Positions 2 to 12,610 of a stretch of DNA of 12,645 bases are shown here, piece by piece. The position numbers were made by a program, and so were the translations under genes. Numbering within the stretch: position 1 is the first letter of the stretch; each line of letters starts with the position of its first letter. The DNA lies in contig JALNXT010000016.1 of assembly GCA_023230245.1 (NCBI GenBank), positions 1-12,645 on the forward strand, given 5' to 3'. The stretch comes from Candidatus Cloacimonadota bacterium. Lineage in GTDB: Bacteria > Cloacimonadota > Cloacimonadia > Cloacimonadales > Cloacimonadaceae. Below the pieces are notes generated by a model, which saw only the letters and a list, made by a program, of their open reading frames with translations, was not told where the DNA came from and searched no databases.

Positions 2-316
2 ACCCGGATCTACGGAGCAGACGATGTCGTCTACTCACCGGCAGCTGATGCGGCCATCAAAGATATCGAAGTTCTCGGAAGAAGCGGTCTTCCTATCTGC
101 ATGGCAAAGACCCAGTACTCGCTCTCCGATGATCCTAATAAACTCGGCAGACCGAAGAACTTTGTTATTAACGCAGCAACGGTTCGGCTTTGTAATGGTG
201 CTGGATTTATCGTTGTCGAGACTGGAGACATTATGACGCTCCCGGGACTGCCGGCAGTTCCTGCAGCTTGTTCGATTGACGTAAACAATGATGGATATAT
301 CTCCGGTCTTTTCTAA
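2..316 (+). CDS. fhs: formate--tetrahydrofolate ligase, C-terminal fragment (5' end lies outside the window)
   Basis: Frame-2 translation from position 2 is stop-free to the TAA at 314-316. It reads ...[102 protein letters not shown]. This is the conserved C-terminus of formyl-THF synthetase ([10 protein letters not shown](L/F)SDDP ... GAGF(I/L)V ... TG(D/E)IMTMPGLP ... IDV ... G(L/I)F). The track's 101..316 ORF is the M-initiated tail of the same frame. Confidence 0.85.
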
Positions 317-493: not shown

Positions 494-1681
494 TTACACT
501 TCACCACACTGATTGTTCCATTGTTCGTATCGCTCAAGCATAATTTTTGTCATCGGTGAACGTATCTTCAGAAAAGCCTCACGAAAATCATCATCTACAA
601 GAGGGGTCGTCTGCAAACTTCGGCTTTTAAGCTCTTCAAATGGAAGTTCAGCCATTTTGTAGAGATCCGGATTCACCTTGCGGATCATCGTCCAGATCGC
701 CTGCTGACAGAAGTTAGAAAGATCACGTCCCGAATAGAGCATCTCCACACATTTTTCTGAAATTCTGTCCAGAGAAACCTCTGAGATGTCCATACCCTTT
801 GTCTGGATCTTTATGATCTCTTTACACGCATTCTGATCCGGAAGAGGGACATAGATCCGCCGTGGGAATCGGGATAAAACTGCCGTATCAAGATCCCACG
901 GGGTATTTGTGGCTGCAAGAGTGAGGAGAAGCTGAGCGCTTTTCTTGTCGGAAAGCCCATCCAATTCTGTAAGGAGGCTGGAGAGGACTTTGCGCGTCGC
1001 CTCGTTTGTTTCCCCGTCTCTGGACTGACTGAGAGCATCGAACTCATCAATGAACACGATTGATGGAGAGTGATCTCTTGCTGAGTTGTAGAGACTGGAG
1101 ATGAGTTTTGAAGATTCACCGAAATATTTTGAGAGCACACTCTCCAATTTCACATCAAAGAACGTTGCATGCAGACTTCCTGCAGACGCTGCCGCAAGAA
1201 GAGTTTTACCGGTCCCGGGAGGTCCAAAGAGAAGAATGCCTTTCCAGGGTTTGATGGACTCGGGTTTTTGCAGACCGGCGATCACTACCGTTTCCATCAT
1301 CAGTTTTTTTACAGAATCAAGCCCGCCGATATCGGACCATTTGACATTGGAGGTCGTTATCAGAGAGGCAGCTTTCCGGCTGATTTTATTTTCCTCTTCT
1401 TTCTCGGTTTCATTATGAGAGGTCAGGGATGGTTTTTGTCTTGACCTCGTTTTTCCAGATGAAACTCTCTCCCATTTCTCAGCTCGTTCGAGATATTCTC
1501 TTTTGTTTGAAAGATTCATGTTTGCAAGTTCATGATAGAACTTCGCGATCTCTGCCGCTTTTTTTCTTGCTCCGGGAAGGTCATTTTTCTCAATCAGGGA
1601 TGAATATTCTACGGAGGCTTTTTTCAGGGCATCATACAGAGGGCCGCTTAAATCGATTTTCATCGGAGTTTCCTCCCGCAT
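494..1681 (-). CDS. Vps4/CdvC-like AAA+ ATPase with N-terminal MIT-like helical domain (meiotic clade); probable true start at ATG 1663
   Basis: Walker A ILLFGPPGTGKTLLA. Pore-loop LSKYFGESSKLISSLY (Vps4: VSKWMGESEKLVKQLF). Walker B IVFIDEFDAL. Second region of homology ATNTPWDLDTAVLSRFPRRIYVPLPD (Vps4: [26 protein letters not shown]). Vps4-specific C-terminal helix DFREAFLKIRSPMTKIMLERYEQWNNQCGE (Vps4: [32 protein letters not shown]). N-terminal 3-helix region LYDALKKASVEYSSLIEKNDLPGARKKAAEIAKFYHELANM is MIT-like. GGGAGG (1677-1672, minus strand) sits 8 nt upstream of the second ATG (1663). Confidence 0.9.
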   Translation of the reverse strand: MREETPMKIDLSGPLYDALKKASVEYSSLIEKNDLPGARKKAAEIAKFYHELANMNLSNKREYLERAEKWERVSSGKTRSRQKPSLTSHNETEKEEENKISRKAASLITTSNVKWSDIGGLDSVKKLMMETVVIAGLQKPESIKPWKGILLFGPPGTGKTLLAAASAGSLHATFFDVKLESVLSKYFGESSKLISSLYNSARDHSPSIVFIDEFDALSQSRDGETNEATRKVLSSLLTELDGLSDKKSAQLLLTLAATNTPWDLDTAVLSRFPRRIYVPLPDQNACKEIIKIQTKGMDISEVSLDRISEKCVEMLYSGRDLSNFCQQAIWTMIRKVNPDLYKMAELPFEELKSRSLQTTPLVDDDFREAFLKIRSPMTKIMLERYEQWNNQCGEV

Positions 1682-2517
1682 TTATTACAATAGTGTTGAT
1701 CTTCCTGAGTCGGTGCCCCACAAAAAGAGCATGTTTCCGTCTTACATATACGTGAAAGGATACCTGTTGGTTTTACATCCCCGGGATTTTGCTCTTCGGA
1801 TCTTTGGATGATTTGTTCGTTTGGAACAGTCCATCCAGTACCGGGCTCTCCCATTATTATCGGACGATTCTGTATTGCGTCATCCGTTGCCTGATTTCCT
1901 CCGTTATTTATCGGTCCTTTATTATCACCAAAAATAATCGGTGCATTGTTATCTCCTATAATAACTACACCCCGGTTGGGTGTTCCATTACTTGGATGGG
2001 CCATCTCTATTTTATGTGCCTTTGCGAAAAACAAATCAGCTTCGATCAGAGGGATCGCGTTTCTCCCATATTTGCTTCCGATCGCATTCTTCAGAGCTGT
2101 TTTTAAGGCTTCTTCGGCGAGTACATATTCATCCATCCGGATGAGTGTTCGCCCTTTCCAATGCCAGGCGACAACAGACTGTCTGGTGATCTGAATACTT
2201 TTATCATAATACGCAAGCGCCAGATCGTATTTTTTCAGATAGTGATACGCACGTCCCGCCCCATGATATGCCCATGCGTGATGTCGATCGATTTTTATTG
2301 CATTCTCAAAACAGTTGAGAGCATCAGAATATTTTCCTAAGTCAAGAAGGCATTCGCCTTTCCCGTGCAGAGCGACGTAGGGTCTTTGCTTTCGTACAAT
2401 TGCTTTATCGAAAGCATCGATCGCTTCTTCATATTTTCCCTGATGTTTGCATTTCCAGCCAAGTTGTTCGTAATTGATACCTGACGTGTGGGTCGTACGA
2501 CGATGGTGGGTACTCAT
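1660..2517 (-). CDS. TPR-repeat protein with a central Gly/Asn-rich 'IGDN' repeat segment and a C-terminal zinc ribbon
   Basis: 285 aa. The N-terminal approximately 170 aa contain at least 4 TPR-like 34-mers (W/Y-x-G-x-A ... Y-x-x-A-L-x-x-F/Y-x-K-A-I, e.g. AWAYHGAGRAYHYLKKYDLALAYYDKSIQI). The middle segment is GVVIIGDNNAPIIFGDNKGPINNGGNQ. The C-terminal ribbon is CKTETCSFCGAPTQEDQHYCNKCGRKLR (CxxC-x12-CxxC). The ATG at 2517-2515 overlaps the upstream TGA (TGATG). Its own TGA (1662-1660) overlaps the downstream ATG (ATGA). Confidence 0.8.
   Translation of the reverse strand: MSTHHRRTTHTSGINYEQLGWKCKHQGKYEEAIDAFDKAIVRKQRPYVALHGKGECLLDLGKYSDALNCFENAIKIDRHHAWAYHGAGRAYHYLKKYDLALAYYDKSIQITRQSVVAWHWKGRTLIRMDEYVLAEEALKTALKNAIGSKYGRNAIPLIEADLFFAKAHKIEMAHPSNGTPNRGVVIIGDNNAPIIFGDNKGPINNGGNQATDDAIQNRPIIMGEPGTGWTVPNEQIIQRSEEQNPGDVKPTGILSRICKTETCSFCGAPTQEDQHYCNKCGRKLR
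1672..1677 (-). promoter_or_regulatory. Shine-Dalgarno GGGAGG for the AAA ATPase (second ATG at 1663)
   Basis: Minus strand reads TAATAAATGCGGGAGGAAACTCCGATGA. GGAGG, an 8-nt spacer, then ATG. The same ATG overlaps the upstream TGA stop as ATGA. Confidence 0.5.
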
Positions 2518-3083
2518 CAGTCATCAGCTCCTAAGAAAACCTTCAACTCCTTGTCCATTCTGCCTTGCACAAACGTCACAACATCACCATATCCCCGAAG
2601 TGTGATCAGAAGTTTTGTTTCTCCATCATTATTTGTCAGAGAAACGTCTATCCCCACCTGTCCTTTCTTCGTGTATGCCGTATATGCTTTGATCCCCTGT
2701 TTTGTTCCTTCGAACGAAGCCCCGAGTTTATTCATTATATAATTGAGAAATTTATCGATCGCTGCTGCATCCATAGAGGATGAATATTTCAAATGCATGG
2801 TTTGCTCCGTGATCTCCGGAGAATAAGCATCTCCTGCAAAAACATGAACGGACCCATCTCCAACACTCAAACGGGAATAAAGGTCATCCAAAAACTCATC
2901 AATATCCCCATTATCGAAATGAATAATCGTTCCCTTTGGTTTATGTATATTGGCCTTATCCTTCCAGCGTTCAATAGCGTAGTCTATCCGTTTACGCTCC
3001 GCATCGGACTGATAATCTACCAAAATCAGATAGTCCATATTAAATAAGGGATATGTTTTCAGGCTATATATCTCTATCACCAT
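2517..3083 (-). CDS. hypothetical protein (188 aa); first gene of the minus-strand operon
   Basis: Clean ORF with ATG at 3083-3081 and codon usage like its neighbours. It ends TGA at 2519-2517, overlapping the TPR gene start by 1 nt. The N-terminal segment MDYLILVDYQSDAERKRIDYAIERWKDKANIHKPKGTIIHFDNGDIDEFLDDLYSRLSVGDGSVHVFAG has a beta-alpha-beta-beta-alpha-beta periodicity reminiscent of the Cas2/VapD-like ferredoxin fold. This is inference only; no confident family assignment is possible. Confidence 0.6.
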   Translation of the reverse strand: MVIEIYSLKTYPLFNMDYLILVDYQSDAERKRIDYAIERWKDKANIHKPKGTIIHFDNGDIDEFLDDLYSRLSVGDGSVHVFAGDAYSPEITEQTMHLKYSSSMDAAAIDKFLNYIMNKLGASFEGTKQGIKAYTAYTKKGQVGIDVSLTNNDGETKLLITLRGYGDVVTFVQGRMDKELKVFLGADD

Positions 3084-3176
3084 ATTGGATATTGTATTTT
3101 ATGGTTATTATATTTATTCTCCATTTTGGAGAAATATTTATATCGATGAAAAACCAATGAAATCCTTGTGAGAAAG
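3084..3176. promoter_or_regulatory. AT-rich divergent promoter region with TATA-like boxes for both operons
   Basis: 93-bp gene-free, approximately 80% A+T spacer between divergent starts (3083 minus, 3177 plus). TTATTATATTTATT at 3107-3120 lies about 27-30 nt from the minus ATG (a leaderless mRNA is plausible). ATATTTATATC at 3133-3143 lies about 38 nt before the plus ATG. Confidence 0.35.
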
Positions 3177-3779
3177 ATGGAACTGAAAAATCTGTTCAAA
3201 AAAAGTAATACGATCGACAAACTCAAGATCATCGAACTCCAGGAGGAGGAACTCAGACTCAAAAGCAGGATCAACCGTCTCAGAAAGGAGATCGATGTTA
3301 TTGAAAAAGACAAAAAATGCCTTTTTAATGAGGGTATAGGAGCTGATCTGATCAAGAAAAAGATGATCGCACAGGAGTTAAAACAGCTTGATATGAGCGG
3401 CAAACTCAAAATCAAGAACTTCCTGACCTTACACAAACAGTACATGTTTGTATCCAACCTCATCATCATCAAAAAGTATCAGCGGGATTTGCAGACCACA
3501 CAGGTCTGGAACAAAATCCAGAGCCTTTCTCCTGAGAACTTCGAGTCGTCCCTCATCAAAGTCAACTTGTCCGGAAAAGGTTTTGAGAATGTTCTCGACG
3601 ATCTCAACCGTATTTTTGCACTTGACATCACGGATTCTGATTCCGATGTTGACGAAGCAGAAAAGCAGATGTTTGACATCTGGAACAGTGTTGAAGCGGG
3701 AAATCTTGACGTGAGCGATGCAGAGAATCTTATCTCAATAGAGAAAGAAATTGAAAAGTCCCTGGAGAAAGGTGACTGA
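3177..3779 (+). CDS. coiled-coil protein, ESCRT-III (Snf7/CdvB) / PspA-superfamily-like; the track's 3168 start is a GTG, so the ATG at 3177 is preferred
   Basis: Approximately 200 aa, predicted all-helical, with a basic N-terminus (KKSNTIDKLKIIELQEEELRLKSRINRLRKEIDVIEKDKK) and an acidic C-terminus (DITDSDSDVDEAEKQMFDIWNSVEAGNLDVSDAENLISIEKEIEKSLEKGD). The core EGIGADLIKKKMIAQELKQLDMSGKLKIKNFLTLHKQ parallels the Snf7 helix-2/3 pattern (KKGNKDAAKILAKQLVRLRKQ...YASKAQLESVSMQL). The C-terminal amphipathic helix ENLISIEKEIEKSL resembles a MIM1 motif. Genomic linkage to a Vps4-like ATPase supports the call. Confidence 0.6.
   Translation: MELKNLFKKSNTIDKLKIIELQEEELRLKSRINRLRKEIDVIEKDKKCLFNEGIGADLIKKKMIAQELKQLDMSGKLKIKNFLTLHKQYMFVSNLIIIKKYQRDLQTTQVWNKIQSLSPENFESSLIKVNLSGKGFENVLDDLNRIFALDITDSDSDVDEAEKQMFDIWNSVEAGNLDVSDAENLISIEKEIEKSLEKGD
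3771..3775 (+). promoter_or_regulatory. Shine-Dalgarno GGTGA for the small membrane protein gene
   Basis: GGTGA-ctgaa-ATG(3781). The SD sits inside the last codons of the upstream gene (stop TGA 3777-3779). The same GGTGA-type SD precedes the ATGs at 4178 and 8593. Confidence 0.5.
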
Positions 3780-3780
3780 A

Positions 3781-4170
3781 ATGTTTGAGATGACTGATGT
3801 TTCAATAGATTGGATACTTTCATTAATATTATTTCTCATCATTATTTTTGGAATCATCGCCATATGTGCTGTATTCAAGGAAAAAAACAAAAAACGTGAG
3901 ACTGAGAAAAGAAACCTACTTTCGGCAATGTTTGCGGCGACGTTCACCATGGAAGAAGATGAAACCGAAGAGGAATATTCCAAGAGAATTCACACAGAAG
4001 TCGACATTTACCTCAGGGAACAGGAAGACAAAATCTGGAACGAGGCAAAAGAGGAATATAGAAACCTGTTCGGGAAGAAAAAAACGTGCGATTCATGCAG
4101 TGATGAAACTGAGGCTAAAATCCCCTGCGTAACTTGCGTGAACGCTTGCGAGGAGAGGATTACAACATAG
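3781..4170 (+). CDS. small membrane protein with N-terminal TM helix and C-terminal Cys4-type zinc ribbon (YdjG/YdjH-like accessory?)
   Basis: The track's ORF starts at TTG 3751 and overlaps the upstream gene. The ATG at 3781 (MFEMTDVSIDW) has an SD and begins 1 nt after the upstream stop. TM helix ILSLILFLIIIFGIIAICAVF is followed by a charged stretch KEKNKKRETEKR (N-out/C-in). The acidic middle is EEDETEEEY. The C-terminus is CDSCSDETEAKIPCVTCVNAC (CxxC-x9-CxxCxxxC). Confidence 0.7.
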   Translation: MFEMTDVSIDWILSLILFLIIIFGIIAICAVFKEKNKKRETEKRNLLSAMFAATFTMEEDETEEEYSKRIHTEVDIYLREQEDKIWNEAKEEYRNLFGKKKTCDSCSDETEAKIPCVTCVNACEERITT

Positions 4171-4177
4171 GTGAACA

Positions 4178-4723
4178 ATGTCAATCATAAATAGCAAAAA
4201 AAGCCTTGAAAAAATAAGTTTAGGGGATTTGCGCATGGCAGAGGCAGAGCTCATTTTTTCTGTTTCAACTATTCATGAAAAAATAATGGAAATTGACAAA
4301 AAGATCGATGCAGAATTGATGACCTGCACAAAAGTTCTCTCTGAGTTTGAAACGGTTTCGGCAGCGAAAAAGATTTCAAGTCTGATATGTGAGAGAAAAG
4401 AACTCATTAAAAGGCTTCAAATTGCAGAAAAGAAGAAATTAGCGGTTGCGCGCCTTATTTGGATCAAGGATAATATAACTATTATTTCAGCACGAAAATC
4501 AGATATTTTCAGAAATCTTGACCTTGATGAAATAACTGCAAAACGTGATGAGATCGAAATTAAAACCGAAATTGAAGAGATGAAGCTTGATAAAATTCTT
4601 GATGAATCTGGGGCTTCATCAGGTGAATACAAAAAGATTCTTGAAATTGTAAAATCGGTAATTCTAGACGATGAAAGCGTGAAAATAGCCAAAGTTGAGA
4701 TAGAATGTCTGAGTTTGAAGTAA
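4178..4723 (+). CDS. coiled-coil protein (181 aa), possible second ESCRT-III/PspA-like paralog
   Basis: AGGTGA at 4169-4174 lies 3 nt before the ATG. The sequence is highly helical and charged with heptad periodicity (LSEFETVSAAKKISSLICERKELIKRLQIAEKKKLAVARL...EIEIKTEIEEMKLDKILDES) and has an acidic C-terminal tail. There is no enzyme motif. Similarity to ESCRT-III is weaker than for 3177-3779. Confidence 0.7.
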   Translation: MSIINSKKSLEKISLGDLRMAEAELIFSVSTIHEKIMEIDKKIDAELMTCTKVLSEFETVSAAKKISSLICERKELIKRLQIAEKKKLAVARLIWIKDNITIISARKSDIFRNLDLDEITAKRDEIEIKTEIEEMKLDKILDESGASSGEYKKILEIVKSVILDDESVKIAKVEIECLSLK

Positions 4724-4775
4724 GGATTAAATGCATTAAAGAGAAAGTAACTGATTAGTGTGATGGAATTTTATC

Positions 4776-6407
4776 ATGTTTAACAGGAAAATAAAATGTA
4801 ATTTTTGCGGTGCTGAAAATCCTGCGGGGGGCCATTTCTGTATCATATGCGGAAAATCAATCGAGGGAAAATCAAACAGCACATGTCCCATATGTGGAGC
4901 TGCTATTGTTGCAGGGGCGTCATTTTGTGGTAAATGTGGTGCAAAACTCTTGGACTCGCCGCAAACAACCCGAACTGCCGACACCTCCAAAGAGCTTGGT
5001 AAAAATCGTCAGTGGATGAGAATGCCGGGAGATCTTGCCCAGAGATTTGAACTCTCGGATATCAAAGGATTTTTTGCAAAACAGGTAACCGTTGAACAGG
5101 GAACAAAAGCCATTCTTCTTCAAGGAGGGATTTACAAAGGAACACTTCCTGCAGGCGTATACAATCTTGGAAACATCTTTGATACCATCGGTCAGTTGAG
5201 ACTTGATGAGCGAACAACGGTTATTCTTGTTGATGCCGGAGAGATTCCTCTTACCTTCATGATTCCAAAAGGTGAGTTACGTTCAAAGAATGCCATATCT
5301 GTCGAAGCTGCAGGTATATTGACGGCGCAGATCAAAGATCCGGTCGCTTTTCTTGAAAACTATCTGAAACGTGAACAGCACGTGAGTCTTATGGACATTG
5401 AGAACTGCATTCATGCAGAACTCAAAAATATTGCCCAGAATAAAATATCCCAATATAATATAGAAGAACTGTACGGAAATGCAGTTCTCAGTCAGGAATT
5501 GAGTAATGAATTCAAGAAAAATCTGAATGCAAACTTTGGTAATAAGGGTATAGAGATTTCTCATCTGAACTGTGTGGGCTTTGATGAAGGAGCCTGGAAA
5601 GAGGTTCTTGGAGCACGCGAAAGTATGCAGATCGAAGTGGGCAAAGCCAAAGCAGAGTATGAAAAGAAAGCTTACTTGCGTGAAGCAGGAACGAAAGATG
5701 CTGTTGGTCAGATTAATGCGGACCATACCATACAATCACTTCATGAGGGGCTTGAAAATCAAAGAATCAATACTGCCTTAAATCACGACCTTGCCCGTGA
5801 TTCTGCAAAACATGACCATGAACTGGAAAAAGACAGCAAGGAGATCAAGCAGCATCTGGAATTCAAAAGACAGAACAAGGCGATCAAACGGGAGGATGAG
5901 AGACAAAAGATCGCAAATCTCTCAGAAGCACCGATCGAAGTTCTCATTTCTCTGGTCGATGATCAGACGGTCGGCGCCCTTGTTCAACTTGAACTTGCTA
6001 AGAGAGCAAACAGCCTGACGCCGGAACAAATCCTTGCGATGAATGCAAAAGACCCGAAGGCAGCTGCCGAGGCATTGGCCGCTCGTGCCAAACTCGAATC
6101 TGTTGAGCAATTGAACGAACTTAGAATCAAGGATCAACAGACCTTCAACGTAACGATGCAGAGTCAATACAAGGAGAATGCCGAGCAGATGAAGGAGGTA
6201 ATGAATTCCGCACTGAATGCTATGGGAAATACGGCGACCGCCCGCTCTACTGCGCAAAATCCAGGGACCACCGTCGTTTCAGGAGGAATGGGGATGCCAG
6301 TTGTCATGAGTAATAATCCTCAATCGAAGAATATATGTCCACATTGTGGTGAAGTCGTGTCGCAAGAGGATTGGTTCTGTCCAAGTTGTAGGAAAAAGTT
6401 GTATTAA
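4776..6407 (+). CDS. double zinc ribbon - SPFH/Band-7 (flotillin/YqiK- or Band_7_1-like) - long coiled coil - C-terminal zinc ribbon protein
   Basis: N-terminus: CNFCGAENPAGGHFCIICG + CPICGAAIVAGASFCGKCG (two CxxC-x9/10-CxxC ribbons). Residues approximately 95-270: FFAKQVTVEQGTKAILLQGGIYKGTLPAGVYNL...TTVILVDAGEIPLTF...ISVEAAGILTAQIKDPVAFLENYL...ELYGNAVLSQELSNEFKKNL...GIEISHLNCVGFD. This matches the SPFH pattern (beta-rich N-part, xDPxxF, GIEIxxVxI at the end). Residues 270-480: Ala/Glu/Lys-rich coiled coil (flotillin-like EA-rich). C-terminus: CPHCGEVVSQEDWFCPSC. Confidence 0.85.
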   Translation: MFNRKIKCNFCGAENPAGGHFCIICGKSIEGKSNSTCPICGAAIVAGASFCGKCGAKLLDSPQTTRTADTSKELGKNRQWMRMPGDLAQRFELSDIKGFFAKQVTVEQGTKAILLQGGIYKGTLPAGVYNLGNIFDTIGQLRLDERTTVILVDAGEIPLTFMIPKGELRSKNAISVEAAGILTAQIKDPVAFLENYLKREQHVSLMDIENCIHAELKNIAQNKISQYNIEELYGNAVLSQELSNEFKKNLNANFGNKGIEISHLNCVGFDEGAWKEVLGARESMQIEVGKAKAEYEKKAYLREAGTKDAVGQINADHTIQSLHEGLENQRINTALNHDLARDSAKHDHELEKDSKEIKQHLEFKRQNKAIKREDERQKIANLSEAPIEVLISLVDDQTVGALVQLELAKRANSLTPEQILAMNAKDPKAAAEALAARAKLESVEQLNELRIKDQQTFNVTMQSQYKENAEQMKEVMNSALNAMGNTATARSTAQNPGTTVVSGGMGMPVVMSNNPQSKNICPHCGEVVSQEDWFCPSCRKKLY

Positions 6408-6433
6408 ATAATTGATTATGATGGAATGAAAAG

Positions 6434-8530
6434 ATGTCTGTAGAAAAAGAAGAGTGTCCAAATTGTGGGGGCAGTGTTGATATAAATCCAATCTCGGGGG
6501 AGGGGACCTGTCCTAGATGTAGAACCAAAGTAAGACAAACTAAAAAATATATTGACAGTGATAAATGGGGTCGTATTGTCATTGACAAAACGGGTGATTT
6601 TCAGAATTCTCTGAGCCGAATAAAAAAAGAAATTCTCTTAGGCAATTATTCCAATGCATATATAGCTTGCCTTGATGCTCTAAAAATAAATGCAAATAAT
6701 TATGAACTCGATTTTTACTATGCATTTTCTGATTATCTTGGAAATGGAAATGAGATGCATTTTCTCCAGTTCTTAATCCAGAAGGAAGTGCAGGTTGATG
6801 TTGAAAAACTTGATGAAATAATGAATATAATGCTAGGTGTCAAGTATACTACTAGCATTCTTACACAGATTGATCTATATATAAATAAACTAGAAATACC
6901 TGAAGCAATTAAAAAGAAATATTTGACTAAACTTACTCTTCTTGCATTTGATCAATACGATTTTCCACGAAAAGTGCATCTAGCATTGTCAGAACAGAAT
7001 AGCAGAAATCAGGCTGAAATGTTTACTTTGATTGACAATCAAATTTGTGACTATCAAGAATATCAATCGATCATACCTCTAATTGAGAAAGCAATTAAGA
7101 ATAATATTATCTTCTCAGAATCATTATCGATTTTTTTTGAGGGAGCAATTCGACAACTTCTATTAGTCAAAATATCTTATGAAGATTATGTAGATTATCA
7201 TTATATAGAGAAAAGTTTAAAAAAACTGAAAGATTTATATTCACTTAGCGATCTGGATAGTAGTTTCAGCAACTATAACATTAAACAAATGTTTGAAAAC
7301 GCCGACTCTACACTTTTGAGTATTAGAGACTCTATTGAAATACACATTCTGGAGCGAAAACGGCTAAGAACGAAAGAACTTCGCAGGCAAAGAGGAAAAA
7401 GAATGGGCAAAGCTCTGAAAATTCTCATCATTTTGGCTGTTCTGGGTGTGGTAATTTTCGCGGGATATAATGTTATTAGTAATTTCATTAATAATCAACA
7501 AAACACAGAAATAACATATCCACTTGGTTCTATTGAAAATCCTTATATTATTACAACACCTGATGAACTACAAAATATGAGAAGTTCAGCTAGTTATGTT
7601 CTTGGTAATGATATTGATTTGAATGGTTATTCTTGGACACCCCTTTGTAACGAAAAGTATCCATTTAAAGGACACTTGGATGGAAATGGATATACAATCT
7701 ATAATTTAAAGGTTTCAAATTATGAAAGTAACGGCCTATTTGCATATGTAGGATCTGGAGCAACTCTTACCAATCTTATTTTTGAAAAGGCAGAAATTAC
7801 TGGTGCACCGGGCATTAGTAAATATGTTGCAGTCATTGCTGGCTGTTCAAAAGGAGAGATTTCTAATTGTAAAGTATTTAATTCTTATGTATCCGGTGGA
7901 GGAAGTCTCTTTGGTGGACTTGTAGGGTTAAATGATGTGGGAACAATTCGTTCATGCTCATTTAACGGCAATGTAATCAATGAAGCTGTTTTTATTAAAA
8001 ATGATAATTTCAATTCTGCAACTGGAGGTATTTTAGGTTCAAATACATATGGAGAAATTTCAAACTGCAAGGCATCAGGCACAATAACTGGACTTGGTTA
8101 TGTGGGAGGTATTGTTGGAGTGGTTACATCTGCTAAGTCAATAATATCAGAATGTTCATTTTCTGGAATTGTAAATGCAGAATTCAGTCCCTACCCGTAT
8201 CCAGTAATGACAAGGATAGCATATACAGCTCCAGCAGGAGGTGCCAAATCAGATGCGGGAGGAATTGCTGGTTGCATTTCTGGTGGTGGAGTGGTTACTG
8301 ACTGTACTTCTTCTGGAACCATTTCAAGCAATAAAAATAAGTTTAGTATTATGACCGGAAATGCAGGTGGGATTCTTGGTTCAATTTCGTATAGTTCAAG
8401 TGGTACGGTGAGAAAGTGTACATCTTCCACACAGGTATACAAATCATCTTATTCTAATGCAGATGGTATTTGTCCTGACACTGATGCTACACTTTCTGGA
8501 AATACTTTTACTGGAGCCATAGTACAATGA
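6434..8530 (+). CDS. membrane-anchored surface protein: N-terminal cytoplasmic zinc ribbon + helical domain, one TM helix, extracellular GLUG-motif repeat (beta-helix-like) domain
   Basis: CPNCGGSVDINPISGEGTCPRC at residues 8-29. Approximately 290 aa helical, Asn/Ile/Lys/Tyr-rich region. The basic stretch RKRLRTKELRRQRGKRMGK immediately precedes the TM helix ALKILIILAVLGVVIFAGYNVI (N-in). After it come repeated G-x-(I/L/V)-x-G units with interspersed N/S-C residues: LFGGLVGLNDVGTIRSCSF, TGGILGSNTYGEISNCKASG, GYVGGIVGVV, AGGIAGCISGGGVVTDCTSSG, AGGILGSISYSSSGTVRKCTSS. These are typical of the GLUG motif family. Confidence 0.85.
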   Translation: MSVEKEECPNCGGSVDINPISGEGTCPRCRTKVRQTKKYIDSDKWGRIVIDKTGDFQNSLSRIKKEILLGNYSNAYIACLDALKINANNYELDFYYAFSDYLGNGNEMHFLQFLIQKEVQVDVEKLDEIMNIMLGVKYTTSILTQIDLYINKLEIPEAIKKKYLTKLTLLAFDQYDFPRKVHLALSEQNSRNQAEMFTLIDNQICDYQEYQSIIPLIEKAIKNNIIFSESLSIFFEGAIRQLLLVKISYEDYVDYHYIEKSLKKLKDLYSLSDLDSSFSNYNIKQMFENADSTLLSIRDSIEIHILERKRLRTKELRRQRGKRMGKALKILIILAVLGVVIFAGYNVISNFINNQQNTEITYPLGSIENPYIITTPDELQNMRSSASYVLGNDIDLNGYSWTPLCNEKYPFKGHLDGNGYTIYNLKVSNYESNGLFAYVGSGATLTNLIFEKAEITGAPGISKYVAVIAGCSKGEISNCKVFNSYVSGGGSLFGGLVGLNDVGTIRSCSFNGNVINEAVFIKNDNFNSATGGILGSNTYGEISNCKASGTITGLGYVGGIVGVVTSAKSIISECSFSGIVNAEFSPYPYPVMTRIAYTAPAGGAKSDAGGIAGCISGGGVVTDCTSSGTISSNKNKFSIMTGNAGGILGSISYSSSGTVRKCTSSTQVYKSSYSNADGICPDTDATLSGNTFTGAIVQ

Positions 8531-8592: not shown

Positions 8593-9540
8593 ATGATAAT
8601 AAGCAAAATAATAAAATTTGAAGGACCAACAGATGTCTTCATCTGGAAACATCCCATCGTAATATTGACGCACCAGATGCAATTATATGTAGAGAACAAT
8701 TATTATGCAATTCTCTTTCGCGATGGGGAAATTCTAGATATTTTCACATCAGGACATTATACTCTAAATGCATCTACTACTCCATTGTTAAAAAAGGTTC
8801 TTCCACACCAATTAAGCAGAAATGTATCTTTTCAGTGTGATGTATATTTTGTAAACTGTTTTACATCATTTAATTTCTTGTGGGGCACTCCCTCTCCAAT
8901 TCCAATGCAAGACCCACTATATGGTTTATTTGTTAATGTTCGAGCAAATGGACAGATGAAAATCAAAGTTTCAGATTCAGCAAAACTTGTAAAAAGACTT
9001 GCAGGTGATGTGTCTTCATTTATTCACGATAAATTACAGGATTATCTGCGAGATATGATAATGATGAAAATTGTAGTAGGAATATCTCAGATAATGATAA
9101 ATGATAATGTCAGTTTCCTAGATGTTTCTGCTAGATTATTTGATATATCAGAGGCAATTCACATAAGTATTGCACGAGATTTATATGAATGTGGCCTTTC
9201 AGCGGTATATTTTAATGTAAATTCAATTACTATCCCTAGTTCTGACTATGCACAATTGAAAGAAGCAAAAGAGACAGCTGTGTCTATAAAAACAATTGCT
9301 GATGCTGAAGCATATAGTATCATTGCTAAAGGAGAGGCAGAAAAAACAGTTCGACCATCAGTAATTAATATTGGAAATGTAGCTTCTGGTGGACAGGTAG
9401 TAGTGGGAGATAACTATGGGAATATTGTTGGGGCAGACGGGATAATAAATAGACCGTCAAACTCAGTCATTCAAGGTGATGAACGGAAAAAAGCTAAGAT
9501 GAATGAAGGTAGTCTGGATTCTGATTTATTTGAGGAGTGA
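8593..9540 (+). CDS. SPFH-superfamily protein of the Band_7_1 (B. subtilis YdjI-like) type with a Gly/Asn-rich C-terminal 'IGDN' repeat tail
   Basis: GGTGA at 8582-8586 lies 6 nt before the ATG. The N-terminus IIKFEGPTDVFIWKHP...LYVENNYYAILFRDGEILDIFTSGHYTLNASTTPLL matches the YdjI-family signature (W(K/R)HP ... L-V-x-E-x-Q-x-A-V/I-x-F-x-DG ... G-x-Y-x-L-x-T-x-N-x-P-L). Downstream matches: VYFVNCFTSFNFLWGTPSPIPMQDP, VRANGQMKIKVSD, YECGLSAVYFNVNSITIPSSDYAQL. The C-terminal tail is VINIGNVASGGQVVVGDNYGNIVGADGIINRPSNSVIQGDE. Confidence 0.85.
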   Translation: MIISKIIKFEGPTDVFIWKHPIVILTHQMQLYVENNYYAILFRDGEILDIFTSGHYTLNASTTPLLKKVLPHQLSRNVSFQCDVYFVNCFTSFNFLWGTPSPIPMQDPLYGLFVNVRANGQMKIKVSDSAKLVKRLAGDVSSFIHDKLQDYLRDMIMMKIVVGISQIMINDNVSFLDVSARLFDISEAIHISIARDLYECGLSAVYFNVNSITIPSSDYAQLKEAKETAVSIKTIADAEAYSIIAKGEAEKTVRPSVINIGNVASGGQVVVGDNYGNIVGADGIINRPSNSVIQGDERKKAKMNEGSLDSDLFEE

Positions 9541-10096: not shown

Positions 10097-11224
10097 CTAT
10101 GAGATGGAAATTAGAATGGATACTAAAGTAGTAATAATTGTTAGAGCAATTATCAACGACCAGACGTTTACTGCACTGTCGGACAATATATCCGTCATTT
10201 GACCATCGAAATATACCATATCCCTATTTATATAGTTTAATTTATTATGCTTGATGGATTCAGATATGAAACCCAACTCATTAATCATTTTTAAATTATA
10301 AATTCCAATACTTTCATAGAATGTGATTTTACGCTTTTTATTTACTCTTGAGAAAATAATAGCAGTGGCAATAATATCTGCGATAAGATAAATCGGGAAT
10401 AAACCAAGTAACATAGGATTTTGTGAAATGATTGCCATGATCAGAATCATTATAAAAATAATGATATGCACTATACTTTTCTTGGGAAGACAAGAAATAG
10501 AATAGTCATAATGTTTCTTTATGAGATAGTAGTTTGCTTTTCCATAATGCCACACCCGTTTTCTCATTTGAGTTCGGTGAGACCATGTATCTTTAGCATG
10601 ATAAACAATTCCTGTTTTTGAACATCTAATTTTATATCCTTTTTTAGTGAGGCGCAGCCCTAAGTCTACATCTTCTCCACCCGGTTTATTTGGAAAATCT
10701 GTATCAAATTCGCCAATTTCGGTAAAGAGATTTTTTCTTATAGAGAAATTAGCAGTTGGTGTCCAAGGGACTTCATATAGCCACCCAGGTAATTTAAAAC
10801 ATACAACAAATGGTGATTGGTCAACAACATGCCAATATCGATTTTCTTCCCCAGTAAATATTAATAAGCCGGCAACACCCCCAATTGAATCATCAGAATA
10901 CATTTTATAATGTTCTGTTAGCAGATTTGGCGAAGCAACACAATCTGAATCCAGATATAATATTATGTCATACTGGGCTTTTGAAGACCCATAATTTCGT
11001 TTGCCTGATACAGAAGGCGTAAAAAAATACTTTTGTGCACTGTATTTTTCACATAAAGAATCAATAATTTTTGTTTCATCTTCAGAACTATCATCAATTA
11101 TCAGTACTTCAGAGGAACCTGTAAAATTATTTCTTGCAATTAATACACTTTGTAATAACTTCTCCAAGTGTAATAACCTTCCTTTGGTTGCAATAACAAT
11201 ACTTATTCCATTTAGTTTTTTCAT
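10097..11224 (-). CDS. glycosyltransferase family 2 (GT-A fold) with C-terminal multi-TM region
   Basis: ISIVIATKGRLLHLEKLLQSVL...EVLIIDDSSED...YLDSDCV (DxD-type), with GGVAGLL and acceptor-side ED motifs. The C-terminal approximately 130 aa are hydrophobic (IVHIIIFIMILIMAIISQNPMLLGLFPIYLIADIIATAIIF ... VWSLIIALTIITTLVSILISIS). The ATG at 11224 overlaps the upstream TGA (ATGA). Confidence 0.85.
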   Translation of the reverse strand: MKKLNGISIVIATKGRLLHLEKLLQSVLIARNNFTGSSEVLIIDDSSEDETKIIDSLCEKYSAQKYFFTPSVSGKRNYGSSKAQYDIILYLDSDCVASPNLLTEHYKMYSDDSIGGVAGLLIFTGEENRYWHVVDQSPFVVCFKLPGWLYEVPWTPTANFSIRKNLFTEIGEFDTDFPNKPGGEDVDLGLRLTKKGYKIRCSKTGIVYHAKDTWSHRTQMRKRVWHYGKANYYLIKKHYDYSISCLPKKSIVHIIIFIMILIMAIISQNPMLLGLFPIYLIADIIATAIIFSRVNKKRKITFYESIGIYNLKMINELGFISESIKHNKLNYINRDMVYFDGQMTDILSDSAVNVWSLIIALTIITTLVSILISIS

Positions 11225-12360
11225 ATAACGACACCCTTTGTAAACAATACGAGAATAAAACTACACGTATATATCAAAACAAAAGATAATAGGAGCAATC
11301 CCATCCTTTTTGCATCATTTTTTAATTGAGCTTGAATTTGAAATGAATTAAACAACATACCTTTTAAAAAGACATCAAGATGCTTTTTCTGGATTGAAGT
11401 TTTTACTCTGAAAAATTCATATAATCCTGCGATACATTTTGAAAGCAGGTAATAAATTGGGTTTTTGAATTTATTCGATATACCATCAATCACATAATTT
11501 ACAATATTAATGCTCAAGCACCAAACTATTAATCCAATTAAAAAAATCCATGATTTCGTTATAAAACATGTAATTCCCCCAATTATTAGAGCTAGACAAA
11601 ATATAACATAATTCTTTGGTATTATCAACTTATATAATTCAGGATGTATTGTACAAATCATTACTTCCATGGATCCCCACCGTTTAGCTCGATCAATTAT
11701 TGCTGAAAAATTATTCCAAGTATTTCGTGAGTGATATGTTACTGCATCCGGAGCAGAACCAATCATATAACCTGCTTTTGTAACTCGGTATGATAGTTCT
11801 AAATCATCCCCGCCAAGTTTATATGGTAAATTTTCTTCAAACATACCAATTTCCTCCAGCACATTTTTCTTAAATGATACATTATTTCCGATGGTCCAGG
11901 AATGAAATGGATATTTTTTTGCAAAGGAAAACGCATCAACAAATGGGGTGATAGATAGAATTTTCCACCAGAAAGTCATTGGCCCTTCAAAAACAGTCAA
12001 GCCAAGAATCCCCCCAATCTTAAATTGGAGAGGCATATTTTGATATGAGGATGCGTAATTATCCAATAATCCCTCTTTTACTCTCACATCAGAGTCAATA
12101 AAAATGATATAGGGATATTTTGCACTTTTTATGCCCAAATTCCTCTTTTGACGAACACTGTCTGTACCATGGATGTATGTTGCATCATATTTTTTACATG
12201 CAGATAGTATCGTTTCTTTTTCTCTACCCTCACTACTATCAATGATTAGAACTTCAGTTGCTCCAAAACTATATGTTTTTCGCTCATCATACAGACTTTC
12301 GAGAAGCCTATCAACTAATTCTGATCGATTCCATGTTGGAATAATAATTGAAAAGTCCAT
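11221..12360 (-). CDS. glycosyltransferase family 2 (paralog of the downstream gene) with C-terminal multi-TM region
   Basis: FSIIIPTWNRSELVDRLLESL...EVLIIDSSEGRE...IFIDSDV...GGILGL, plus C-terminal TM helices (NYVIFCLALIIGGITCFITKSWIFLIGLIVWCLSINIV ... LLLLSFVLIYTCSFILVLF). The track's start at 12372 is a GTG. The ATG at 12360 (MDFSIIIPTWN) is preferred. Confidence 0.85.
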   Translation of the reverse strand: MDFSIIIPTWNRSELVDRLLESLYDERKTYSFGATEVLIIDSSEGREKETILSACKKYDATYIHGTDSVRQKRNLGIKSAKYPYIIFIDSDVRVKEGLLDNYASSYQNMPLQFKIGGILGLTVFEGPMTFWWKILSITPFVDAFSFAKKYPFHSWTIGNNVSFKKNVLEEIGMFEENLPYKLGGDDLELSYRVTKAGYMIGSAPDAVTYHSRNTWNNFSAIIDRAKRWGSMEVMICTIHPELYKLIIPKNYVIFCLALIIGGITCFITKSWIFLIGLIVWCLSINIVNYVIDGISNKFKNPIYYLLSKCIAGLYEFFRVKTSIQKKHLDVFLKGMLFNSFQIQAQLKNDAKRMGLLLLSFVLIYTCSFILVLFTKGVVI

Positions 12361-12610
12361 TTTTTCAGACACATTTAATCCAACTGACCGTTTAAAAGCA
12401 TTGTGACTTCATTACATAAGTACCAACACCCTTCACACTGACAACACAACATTTTTTCTCGACATCTATTCATTTTATCTCCAGTCCAAATTTCTTTTAA
12501 ACTTCTTTCTCCCAATGTTCGGTAGTACCTCAATTTTTCTGTAAATTTTTTGAGGCTCGTATTCTTAGCAGTAATTACGATGTTAGACTACAAAAATATA
12601 CTGTTGTGAA

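Follow-up and report, generated by a model that had tools for sequence, protein, structure and literature searches.

The locus analyzed here raises the question of why small zinc ribbons of the four-cysteine (Cys4) type recur on several unlike proteins that are encoded side by side. The window, i.e., the whole stretch of DNA analyzed, is the 12,645 nucleotide (nt) contig JALNXT010000016.1, which is filed under a 'Candidatus Cloacimonetes' metagenome-assembled genome (MAG). [quoted passage not shown] A preliminary description of the window had listed six Cys4 ribbons on four of its proteins and suggested that they are a common docking or oligomerization handle. The reading put forward here, with a rough probability of 0.45, is that the ribbons are small Zn-binding docking or clustering modules that lie at cytoplasmic protein ends on flexible linkers and gather an SPFH scaffold, adaptors and membrane proteins. 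A conserved linear motif found upstream of the C-terminal ribbons is a better candidate for a shared handle than the ribbons.

All six reported motifs are present, and their positions agree with those first given to within a few bases. Their four hosts are unlike one another by Pfam: a protein of TPR repeats, a single-pass transmembrane (TM) protein, a Band_7/SPFH protein with DZR and Zn_Ribbon_1 matches, and a protein of GLUG repeats. The motifs are listed with the length of the spacer between the two CxxC pairs.

1678–1731, minus strand: motif of the TPR protein, amino acids (aa) 263–280, spacer 10 (range first given, 1668–1749).
4087–4149, plus strand: motif of the small TM protein, aa 113–129 plus C133, spacer 9 (first given, 4087–4150).
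4797–4850, plus strand: first N-terminal motif (N1) of SPFH543, the 543 aa SPFH protein, aa 8–25, spacer 10.
4884–4937, plus strand: second N-terminal motif (N2) of SPFH543, aa 37–54, spacer 10.
6336–6389, plus strand: C-terminal motif of SPFH543, aa 521–538, spacer 10.
6455–6520, plus strand: motif of the GLUG protein, aa 8–29, spacer 14 (first given, 6455–6523).

For SPFH543 the ranges first given were 4797–4940 for the N-terminal pair and about 6324–6383 for the C-terminal motif, the latter some 6–12 nt off. The pattern CxxC-x(9-14)-CxxC is observed seven times, one occurrence being the overlapping middle pair of the SPFH543 double ribbon. When the residues of the nine locus proteins were shuffled 20,000 times, a mean of 0.003 motifs was found, with a maximum of 2.

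The ribbon of the TPR protein and the three of SPFH543 fit the Pfam families Zn_Ribbon_1, DZR or Zn_ribbon_3 (PF13240, PF12773, PF13248) at or near the gathering cut-off, which is 25–27.3 bits for PF13240/PF12773-type ribbons; ribbons were also scored as isolated peptides. Common to these four is C-x2-C-G-x9-[FY]-C-x2-C-G-x-[KP]-L. The GLUG and small TM motifs reach no threshold in these families, and by their sequences they do not belong with the other four. A hidden Markov model (HMM) built from 23 C-terminal ribbons of sister loci, here termed the tail-ribbon HMM, gives 53 bits for the TPR ribbon, 22, 30 and 26 bits for N1, N2 and the C-terminal ribbon of SPFH543, 16.4 bits for the GLUG motif and -2.9 bits for the small TM motif. 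For ribbons of unrelated bacterial proteins the median is 41 bits, in a set biased by its origin as the top matches of an earlier search. A locus-specific ribbon subfamily is ruled out by these scores. The idea that the six ribbons form one subfamily fails: four are in one very broad family, within which they resemble each other no more than they resemble ribbons of unrelated bacterial proteins, the GLUG motif is of another type and the small TM motif is unsupported, which makes at least three sequence types. NCBIfam has no specific family for any ribbon protein of the window, and a literature search found no functional study of PF13240.

The TPR protein, which has three to four TPR repeats by Pfam, ends in a composite tail of a conserved motif, a linker and the ribbon. 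The motif recurs in SPFH315, a second SPFH protein of the window. The tail features are as follows.

1663–1731, minus strand: C-terminal zinc ribbon of the TPR protein, aa 263–285, CSFCGAPTQEDQHYCNKCGRKLR; PF13240 28.0 bits as an isolated peptide, cut-off 25.
1846–1968, minus strand: pre-ribbon motif of the TPR tail, aa 184–224, with the core DDAIQNR at aa 212–218 (nt 1864–1884).
9397–9471, plus strand: tail motif without a ribbon in SPFH315, aa 269–293, VVVGDNYGNIVGADGIINRPSNSVI; in register with the DDAIVNR of TPR, Sel1 and Band_7_1 tails.

Orthologues of the TPR protein occupy the same gene slot in L002, L005 and L007–L013, where L numbers denote related loci or contigs compared with the window and L005 is the contig of Methanocorpusculum parvum XII. 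All of them retain the ribbon except a 243 aa copy in L007 (positions 1452–2183), and the ribbon cysteines are invariant in the orthologues that carry it. In the AlphaFold2 (AF2) model the TPR ribbon has a predicted local distance difference test (pLDDT) score of 86–88. Upstream of the C-terminal ribbons on all TPR, Sel1 and Band_7_1 proteins lies a motif of about 25 aa, I-x-G-N-x-G-V-x-A-x-D-D-A-I-V-N-R-x-x-V, followed by a linker of variable length. Besides the two window sites listed above, it is present in L002, L005–L009 and L011–L019. Alignments A1 and A2 show no variation at TPR residues G207, A210, D212, D213, A214, I215, N217 and R218. The motif is not covered by any Pfam or NCBIfam model, and its region in the TPR protein is disordered in the AF2 model. 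A MIM2-like reading of the 'NRPII' part was ruled out, as the Pro is A, S or T in paralogues.

SPFH315 is a soluble Band_7_1 protein (PF13421, 112.9 bits). Its counterpart in L006 (338 aa, 24% identity) has both the motif and a C-terminal ribbon. Because SPFH315 and the 243 aa TPR protein of L007 keep the motif without the ribbon, the ribbon is dispensable at least sometimes, and motif and ribbon are separable. The DDAIVNR-type motif may be the more constant element of the two. A profile of the composite tail finds six further examples in 5.8 billion proteins, all of them Sel1 or TPR fragments. A metagenome scan with it gives 12 loci, in 11 of which a Vps4-like AAA gene adjoins the tail gene; in the twelfth case the contig is too short for the neighbour to be seen. 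In these scans the composite tail is seen only on genes adjoining a Vps4-like gene.

Terminal ribbons in the sister loci are also present on Sel1-repeat proteins (323–733 aa), further TPR proteins, a Band_7_1 protein and TIR membrane proteins (708–778 aa). Ribbons are found in 24 of 51 cluster genes versus 0 of 31 flanking genes in six non-redundant loci (p = 8e-7), and a conservative core-only count gives 12 of 37 genes (p = 3e-4); the kinship of the six loci makes both p-values no more than illustrative. In the TIR proteins (L002 1570–3906, L006 568–2694, L009 10686–13022), an N-terminal ribbon of the form CKMCGGNL...C..CG precedes a TPR-like region and a TIR_2 domain, and the TM segments are C-terminal. 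Having a TIR domain, they may be connected with defence or NAD signalling.

SPFH543 carries three of the ribbons. It consists of an N-terminal double ribbon, an SPFH domain, long helices, a disordered segment and a C-terminal ribbon. Whole-protein Pfam scores are 44.4 bits for Band_7, 45.8 bits for DZR and 46.3 bits for Zn_Ribbon_1, and 12 of the 14 cysteines belong to the ribbons. The ribbons and the regions of the AF2 model, which has a mean pLDDT of 79.7, are listed below.

4797–4949, plus strand: N-terminal double zinc ribbon, aa 8–26 and 37–58; PF13240 as isolated peptides 23.6 bits (N1, below the cut-off) and 33.2 bits (N2).
6336–6404, plus strand: C-terminal zinc ribbon, aa 521–543; Zn_ribbon_3 29.6 bits, cut-off 27.
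AF2 model, aa 1–58: the two N-terminal ribbons, pLDDT 66–83.
AF2 model, aa 60–65: floppy linker, pLDDT <50.
AF2 model, aa 80–270: SPFH core, pLDDT >90.
AF2 model, aa 271–492: long helices with a disordered break at 328–346, pLDDT mostly 60–93.
AF2 model, aa 493–516: disordered segment, pLDDT mostly <50.
AF2 model, aa 518–543: C-terminal ribbon, pLDDT 75–83.

A Foldseek search matches the model to stomatin, flotillin, prohibitin, erlin and HflK/C, with E values of 1e-10 to 1e-7 for stomatin, flotillin and HflK/C. In the known cages of such SPFH proteins, the N-termini make up the rim, which is anchored in the membrane, and the cap is closed by the C-termini. A hydrophobic anchor is absent from SPFH543, the double ribbon of which is at the canonical SPFH anchor position.

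The exact sequence of SPFH543 is not on record in the look-up made, and 1,804 relatives were found at E<=1e-3 (HMMER, 1.84 billion representatives). Ribbons were counted in the 150 best-scoring of these, which were taken without regard to ribbons and include some fragments. At least one terminal ribbon is present in 143 of the 150. The layout of two N-terminal ribbons and one C-terminal ribbon is the commonest single one (73/150), and many of the rest are fragments. Two N-terminal ribbons occur in 90 representatives and one in 30, and the C-terminal ribbon is found in 114. In a separate set of 70 full-length relatives (22–84% identity), chosen for having ribbons, all 12 ribbon cysteines are invariant and only four other columns are. 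Retention of the cysteines in orthologues differs between the motifs: it is seen in all three SPFH543 ribbons and in the TPR ribbon where that is present, but not in the small TM protein, the C113 of which is replaced by Arg in the orthologue P0074.

The first knuckle of N1 reads CNFC in the window (nt 4797–4808) and CSCGH in L001–L003, L005, L007, L009, L011 and L012, i.e., in every close relative whose SPFH gene includes the N-terminus. CSCGH, a CxC followed by Gly-His, suggests an alternative ligand geometry or a His ligand. Two more distant relatives were also observed. L022, which is archaeal-looking, encodes an SPFH relative (37% identity) with the 2+1 ribbon layout beside a 762 aa protein and two helical proteins; judged by eye, the 762 aa protein has a beta-propeller and then repeated beta-sandwich domains, and the arrangement as a whole recalls the ESCRT loci of adaptin type in Makarova et al. 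2024. L023 is GC-rich and probably bacterial; its SPFH protein is a distant relative (26% identity) and shares the 2+1 layout. A Sel1-repeat gene is upstream of it and a gene starting with a PF13240-like ribbon is downstream, so the association of SPFH, Sel1 and ribbon may extend beyond archaea.

The remaining two motifs are on membrane proteins.

4087–4149, plus strand: Cys cluster of the small TM protein, CDSCSDETEAKIPCVTCVNAC; a doubtful ribbon with no Pfam family at E<=10.
6455–6520, plus strand: N-terminal Cys4 of the GLUG protein, CPNCGGSVDINPISGEGTCPRC; sub-threshold scores of 22.6 (DUF7575), 19.6 (DZR) and 18.8 (PF13240).

The small TM protein is a single-pass protein (TM segment at nt 3811–3876) with an acidic cytoplasmic tail, and KEKNKKRETEKRN follows the TM segment. 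On sequence grounds the gene is real. Its exact product is on record as P0073, and one orthologue, P0074, has 83% identity and the same E3a/E3b context (E3a and E3b being the two putative ESCRT-III-like genes), with 18 synonymous and 23 non-synonymous codon differences between the two genes. It is an insert of some 400 nt that separates E3a from E3b and is seen only in the window contig and in one 876 nt relative (L021); in every other related locus E3b directly follows E3a and the small TM gene is absent. The motif lacks Gly, and because its first Cys is Arg in the sole orthologue (which reads TRDSC...) it is not a supported ribbon. The four cysteines conserved between the two proteins have the pattern C-x9-CxxC-x3-C, which is not that of a two-knuckle ribbon.

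The GLUG protein has the N-terminal Cys4, an orphan helical cytoplasmic domain, a TM segment (nt 7412–7477) and extracellular GLUG repeats (Pfam Glug, 58 bits). In its motif the spacer is longer, at 14, and no aromatic residue stands before the third Cys. No homologue of the first 340 aa (nt 6434–7453) was found in 5.8 billion proteins except a fragment of the same contig. A proposed orthology of the cytoplasmic domain to the L002 protein with N-terminal ribbon and TIR domain was dropped, the BLASTP match not being significant. The basic stretch RKRLRTKELRRQRGKRMGK is N-terminal of the TM segment. By the positive-inside rule, applied to RKRLRTKELRRQRGKRMGK and KEKNKKRETEKRN, the GLUG N-terminus and the small TM C-terminus, and with them both Cys motifs, face the cytoplasm. 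The TPR and SPFH proteins are soluble, and their motifs are cytoplasmic as well.

The genes around the ribbon proteins are arranged as follows.

2–316, plus strand: C-terminal fragment of formate-tetrahydrofolate ligase (fhs), its translation recognized by eye; left border of the locus.
494–1681, minus strand: AAA+ ATPase, Vps4/CdvC-like, 395 aa, a single AAA domain without a ribbon.
1660–2517, minus strand: TPR protein, 285 aa, composite tail at the C-terminus.
2517–3083, minus strand: p188, 188 aa, Cys-free.
3168–3779, plus strand: E3a, coiled coil, 203 aa.
3781–4170, plus strand: small TM protein, 129 aa counted from the ATG at 3781.
4178–4723, plus strand: E3b, coiled coil, 181 aa.
4776–6407, plus strand: SPFH543, 543 aa.
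6434–8530, plus strand: GLUG protein, 698 aa.
8593–9540, plus strand: SPFH315, Band_7_1, 315 aa, without a ribbon.
10097–12372, minus strand: two glycosyltransferases, 375 and 383 aa.

The start of the AAA gene and the TPR gene overlap by 22 nt, and the TPR start overlaps the p188 stop. The order SPFH, E3b, E3a, p188, TPR, AAA is kept in L002, L005, L007–L009, L011 and L012. The AAA protein matches Pfam AAA with 125.7 bits, with a weak, below-cut-off Vps4_C match (E 0.02) and no MIT match, and NCBIfam CdvC with 187 bits against a cut-off of 650. Its orthologue in L005 is 80% identical, and the Vps4 of M. parvum XII is listed as arCOG01307 [PMC10936438]; assignment to the 'Main' Vps4 clade rests on a table in that paper. 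p188 has no Pfam match and is 72–91% identical across the related loci. It is probably arCOG08177, which combines an inactivated Cas2 with a TBP/adaptin-appendage-like domain; its N-terminus, MDYLILVDYQSDAERKRIDY, fits the published arCOG08177 alignment by eye. E3a and E3b, putatively ESCRT-III/Snf7-like, are helical, with an N-terminus that is Snf7-like by eye; neither has a Pfam match, to Snf7 or to any other family, and Protein Data Bank sequence searches gave none. Similarity between the two is weak and colinear (hhalign E 0.002, probability 14%). A Snf7-family arCOG09747 entry is listed for M. bavaricum [PMC10936438] but is not mapped to E3a or E3b.

E3a is 77–93% and E3b 29–38% identical to the counterparts in related loci. 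The GC content is about 50% in the fhs fragment, 41–46% in the AAA, TPR, p188, E3a and SPFH543 genes, and 32–34% in E3b, GLUG, SPFH315 and both glycosyltransferases. With its low GC and with E3b divergent while E3a is not, the downstream part of the window gives the impression of a variable region that may have been acquired. Downstream of the AAA gene the window has no Sel1 or TPR-ribbon genes, unlike L002, L005, L008, L011, L015 and L019. A PADLOC scan of the window proteins gave generic AAA matches only, and there is therefore no defence-system assignment. In the genome collection, relatives of SPFH543 occur on M. parvum contigs and on MAG contigs binned as Bacilli, Acholeplasmataceae, Methanomethylophilaceae or Methanomicrobiales; L001, L002 and L006 are filed under Bacilli, Acholeplasmataceae and Methanomethylophilaceae MAGs. 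Because of their gene content and 80–90% identity to M. parvum, the window and its close relatives look like mis-binned archaeal contigs.

Ribbons on several unrelated proteins are mostly a known feature of such loci. The SPFH ribbons are already on record, since arCOG15283 has been described as an SPFH/coiled-coil/zinc-ribbon 'ESCRT system component', with the ribbons mentioned in passing (Makarova et al. 2024, mBio) [PMC10936438]. M. parvum XII and/or M. bavaricum are listed there for arCOG01307 (Vps4), arCOG08177, arCOG09747 (Snf7) and arCOG15283, the last including M. parvum XII WP_095642223 and an M. bavaricum protein. SPFH543 is probably arCOG15283: it likewise combines SPFH, coiled coil and zinc ribbons beside Snf7-like and Vps4 genes, and L005 encodes an orthologue of 81% identity, which was matched to WP_095642223 by shared genome and not by sequence. 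The window locus differs from the Meth_adaptin loci in lacking their adaptin-appendage, GOLD and ProX genes and in pairing the SPFH protein with the 'Main'-clade arCOG08177; this lineage also has TPR/Sel1 tail-ribbon proteins. 'Main'-clade loci otherwise always carry arCOG09748, the C-terminus of which is a winged-helix docking domain [PMC10936438]. No arCOG09748-like gene is found in the window, and no Methanocorpusculum entry is in the published arCOG09748 list [PMC10936438]. The TPR-tail-ribbon gene is instead in the arCOG09748 slot, between the arCOG08177-like p188 gene and the Vps4 gene. The composite tail, being Vps4-linked and lineage-specific, looks like a new element that may replace the usual winged-helix protein in this lineage.

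The preliminary description also drew a parallel with YdjG, the zinc-ribbon partner of bacterial PspA. That match is documented, and the analogy already published: YdjI is a band-7 protein with a C-terminal ribbon, and YdjG has two ribbons and a TM segment (Ravi et al. 2024) [PMC11237479]. In B. subtilis, PspA needs YdjI, YdjG and YdjH for membrane localization (Scholz et al. 2021), YdjI is not membrane-autonomous and needs YdjG and YdjH, and YdjG starts MIISYKCPNC according to a published primer [PMC8581546]. The window resembles pspA-ydjGHI in that a member of the ESCRT-III superfamily, putative in the window, is found with a soluble band-7 protein of the C-terminal-ribbon type (YdjI) and with a membrane-anchored protein that has an N-terminal ribbon (YdjG). 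The remodellers of the window, however, are Snf7-like proteins and a Vps4 ATPase and not PspA. There is no TPM-domain counterpart of YdjH, and no TPM or NTF2 Pfam match anywhere in the window. The Band_7_1 protein SPFH315 has lost its ribbon, whereas the L006 counterpart is YdjI-like and has one. YdjG has two ribbons, an NTF2-like domain and a C-terminal TM segment; in the GLUG protein there is a single ribbon, the TM segment is central and the extracellular domain is a beta-helix.

Docking by small zinc modules has precedents in other ESCRT systems. The NZF fingers of Vps36 are docking zinc modules of eukaryotic ESCRT. Asgard Vps25-like proteins have three Zn ribbons [PMC10936438]. These modules are likewise small, but they belong to different zinc-finger families, and the window locus has no ubiquitin system.

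In the proposed mechanism, the ribbons would unite three kinds of protein with ESCRT-III and Vps4 in one sub-membrane assembly: a cage-forming SPFH scaffold, adaptors of the TPR/Sel1 kind and single-pass membrane proteins. Because the N-terminal double ribbon sits at the canonical membrane-anchor position, an SPFH543 oligomer would display many ribbons at its membrane-facing rim, with more at the apex, and the composite tail of the accessory proteins would act as a locus-specific recruitment tag. For this reading, AF2 models the ribbons as confident small modules (pLDDT 66–88) split from the protein cores by low-confidence linkers. Also on its side are the motif count far above the mean of the shuffled proteins, the enrichment of ribbons in the sister loci, the link of the composite tail to Vps4, the place of the TPR-tail-ribbon gene in the arCOG09748 slot, the similarity of the SPFH543 core and helices to cage-forming stomatin, flotillin, prohibitin and HflK/C, and the B. 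subtilis precedent of YdjI and YdjG. Part of the earlier idea of a shared docking handle stands, in that the ribbons are real, cytoplasmic, well retained in the TPR and SPFH proteins and recurrent on sister-locus proteins; the part that fell is their membership in one subfamily. Several points count against a docking or clustering role. The SPFH543 ribbons (22–30 bits) score below unrelated bacterial ribbons (median 41) on the tail-ribbon HMM. The motif is kept and the ribbon lost in SPFH315 and in the 243 aa TPR protein of L007. The AF2 model of the full TPR protein (mean pLDDT 44.9) is uninformative outside the ribbon and silent on tail docking, and the ribbons as such were not probed in the Bacillus study [PMC8581546]. 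The enrichment of ribbons uses related loci in which ribbon genes partly define the cluster edges, against a background of 31 flanking genes and not the genome-wide frequency of PF13240. A more specific version, in which the motif-linker-ribbon tail plugs interchangeable adaptors (TPR, Sel1, Band_7_1) into Vps4/ESCRT-III, e.g., via the TBP domain of arCOG08177 or the N-domain of Vps4, and replaces arCOG09748, is rather unlikely.

A somewhat unlikely alternative is that the ribbons are generic, independent, fold-stabilizing end caps (PF13240/DZR) that spread by domain shuffling among fast-evolving neighbours and have no common partner or ESCRT role. This would account for the variety of sequence types among the six, for the loss of the ribbon while its host was kept (SPFH315 and the 243 aa L007 protein), for the absence of N-terminal ribbons in about 20% of SPFH family representatives, and for the dozens of equal or better ribbons that the tail-ribbon profile finds on unrelated short bacterial proteins. 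It does not sit well with the prevalence of the 2+1 layout in the SPFH family (commonest at 73/150 best-scoring representatives), with the count of 24/51 cluster versus 0/31 flanking genes, or with a composite tail seen only beside Vps4. The ribbons might otherwise bind anionic lipids directly; they would then take over from the TM or hairpin anchor that the soluble SPFH proteins lack and fasten the adaptors to the inner leaflet. The anchorless SPFH543 with its double ribbon at the membrane-proximal N-terminus would fit, as would the basic C..CG[KR]KL ending of nearly all ribbons and the aromatic residue before the third Cys. Direct lipid binding is nevertheless quite improbable, as the ribbon-bearing YdjI of B. 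subtilis needs YdjG and YdjH for the membrane [PMC8581546]; by known SPFH cages, the place of the C-terminal ribbon would in addition be the apex, well away from the membrane. Members of other zinc ribbon families bind DNA or RNA, but nothing in the locus points to nucleic acid binding or gene regulation: the ribbons sit on scaffolds associated with the membrane, on TPR/Sel1 adaptors and on surface proteins, and Pfam/NCBIfam scans of the locus show no helix-turn-helix domain, nuclease or polymerase. Such a role is extremely unlikely.

Outside Sulfolobus cell division, gene content is almost the sole basis for ideas on the targeting of archaeal ESCRT and its access to membranes. If the ribbons were only generic end caps, little would be added beyond the domain architectures published in 2024. 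If the plug-in version is true, the tail would be a modular layer for adaptor and cargo selection, comparable to ESCRT-0/I or to MIM-MIT docking and built from different parts. Should ribbons and tail motif indeed serve as docking tags, a testable wiring diagram for one such system would follow, showing which proteins are recruited, the short element used and the hub reached, along with a mechanistic link to the bacterial PspA-SPFH module.

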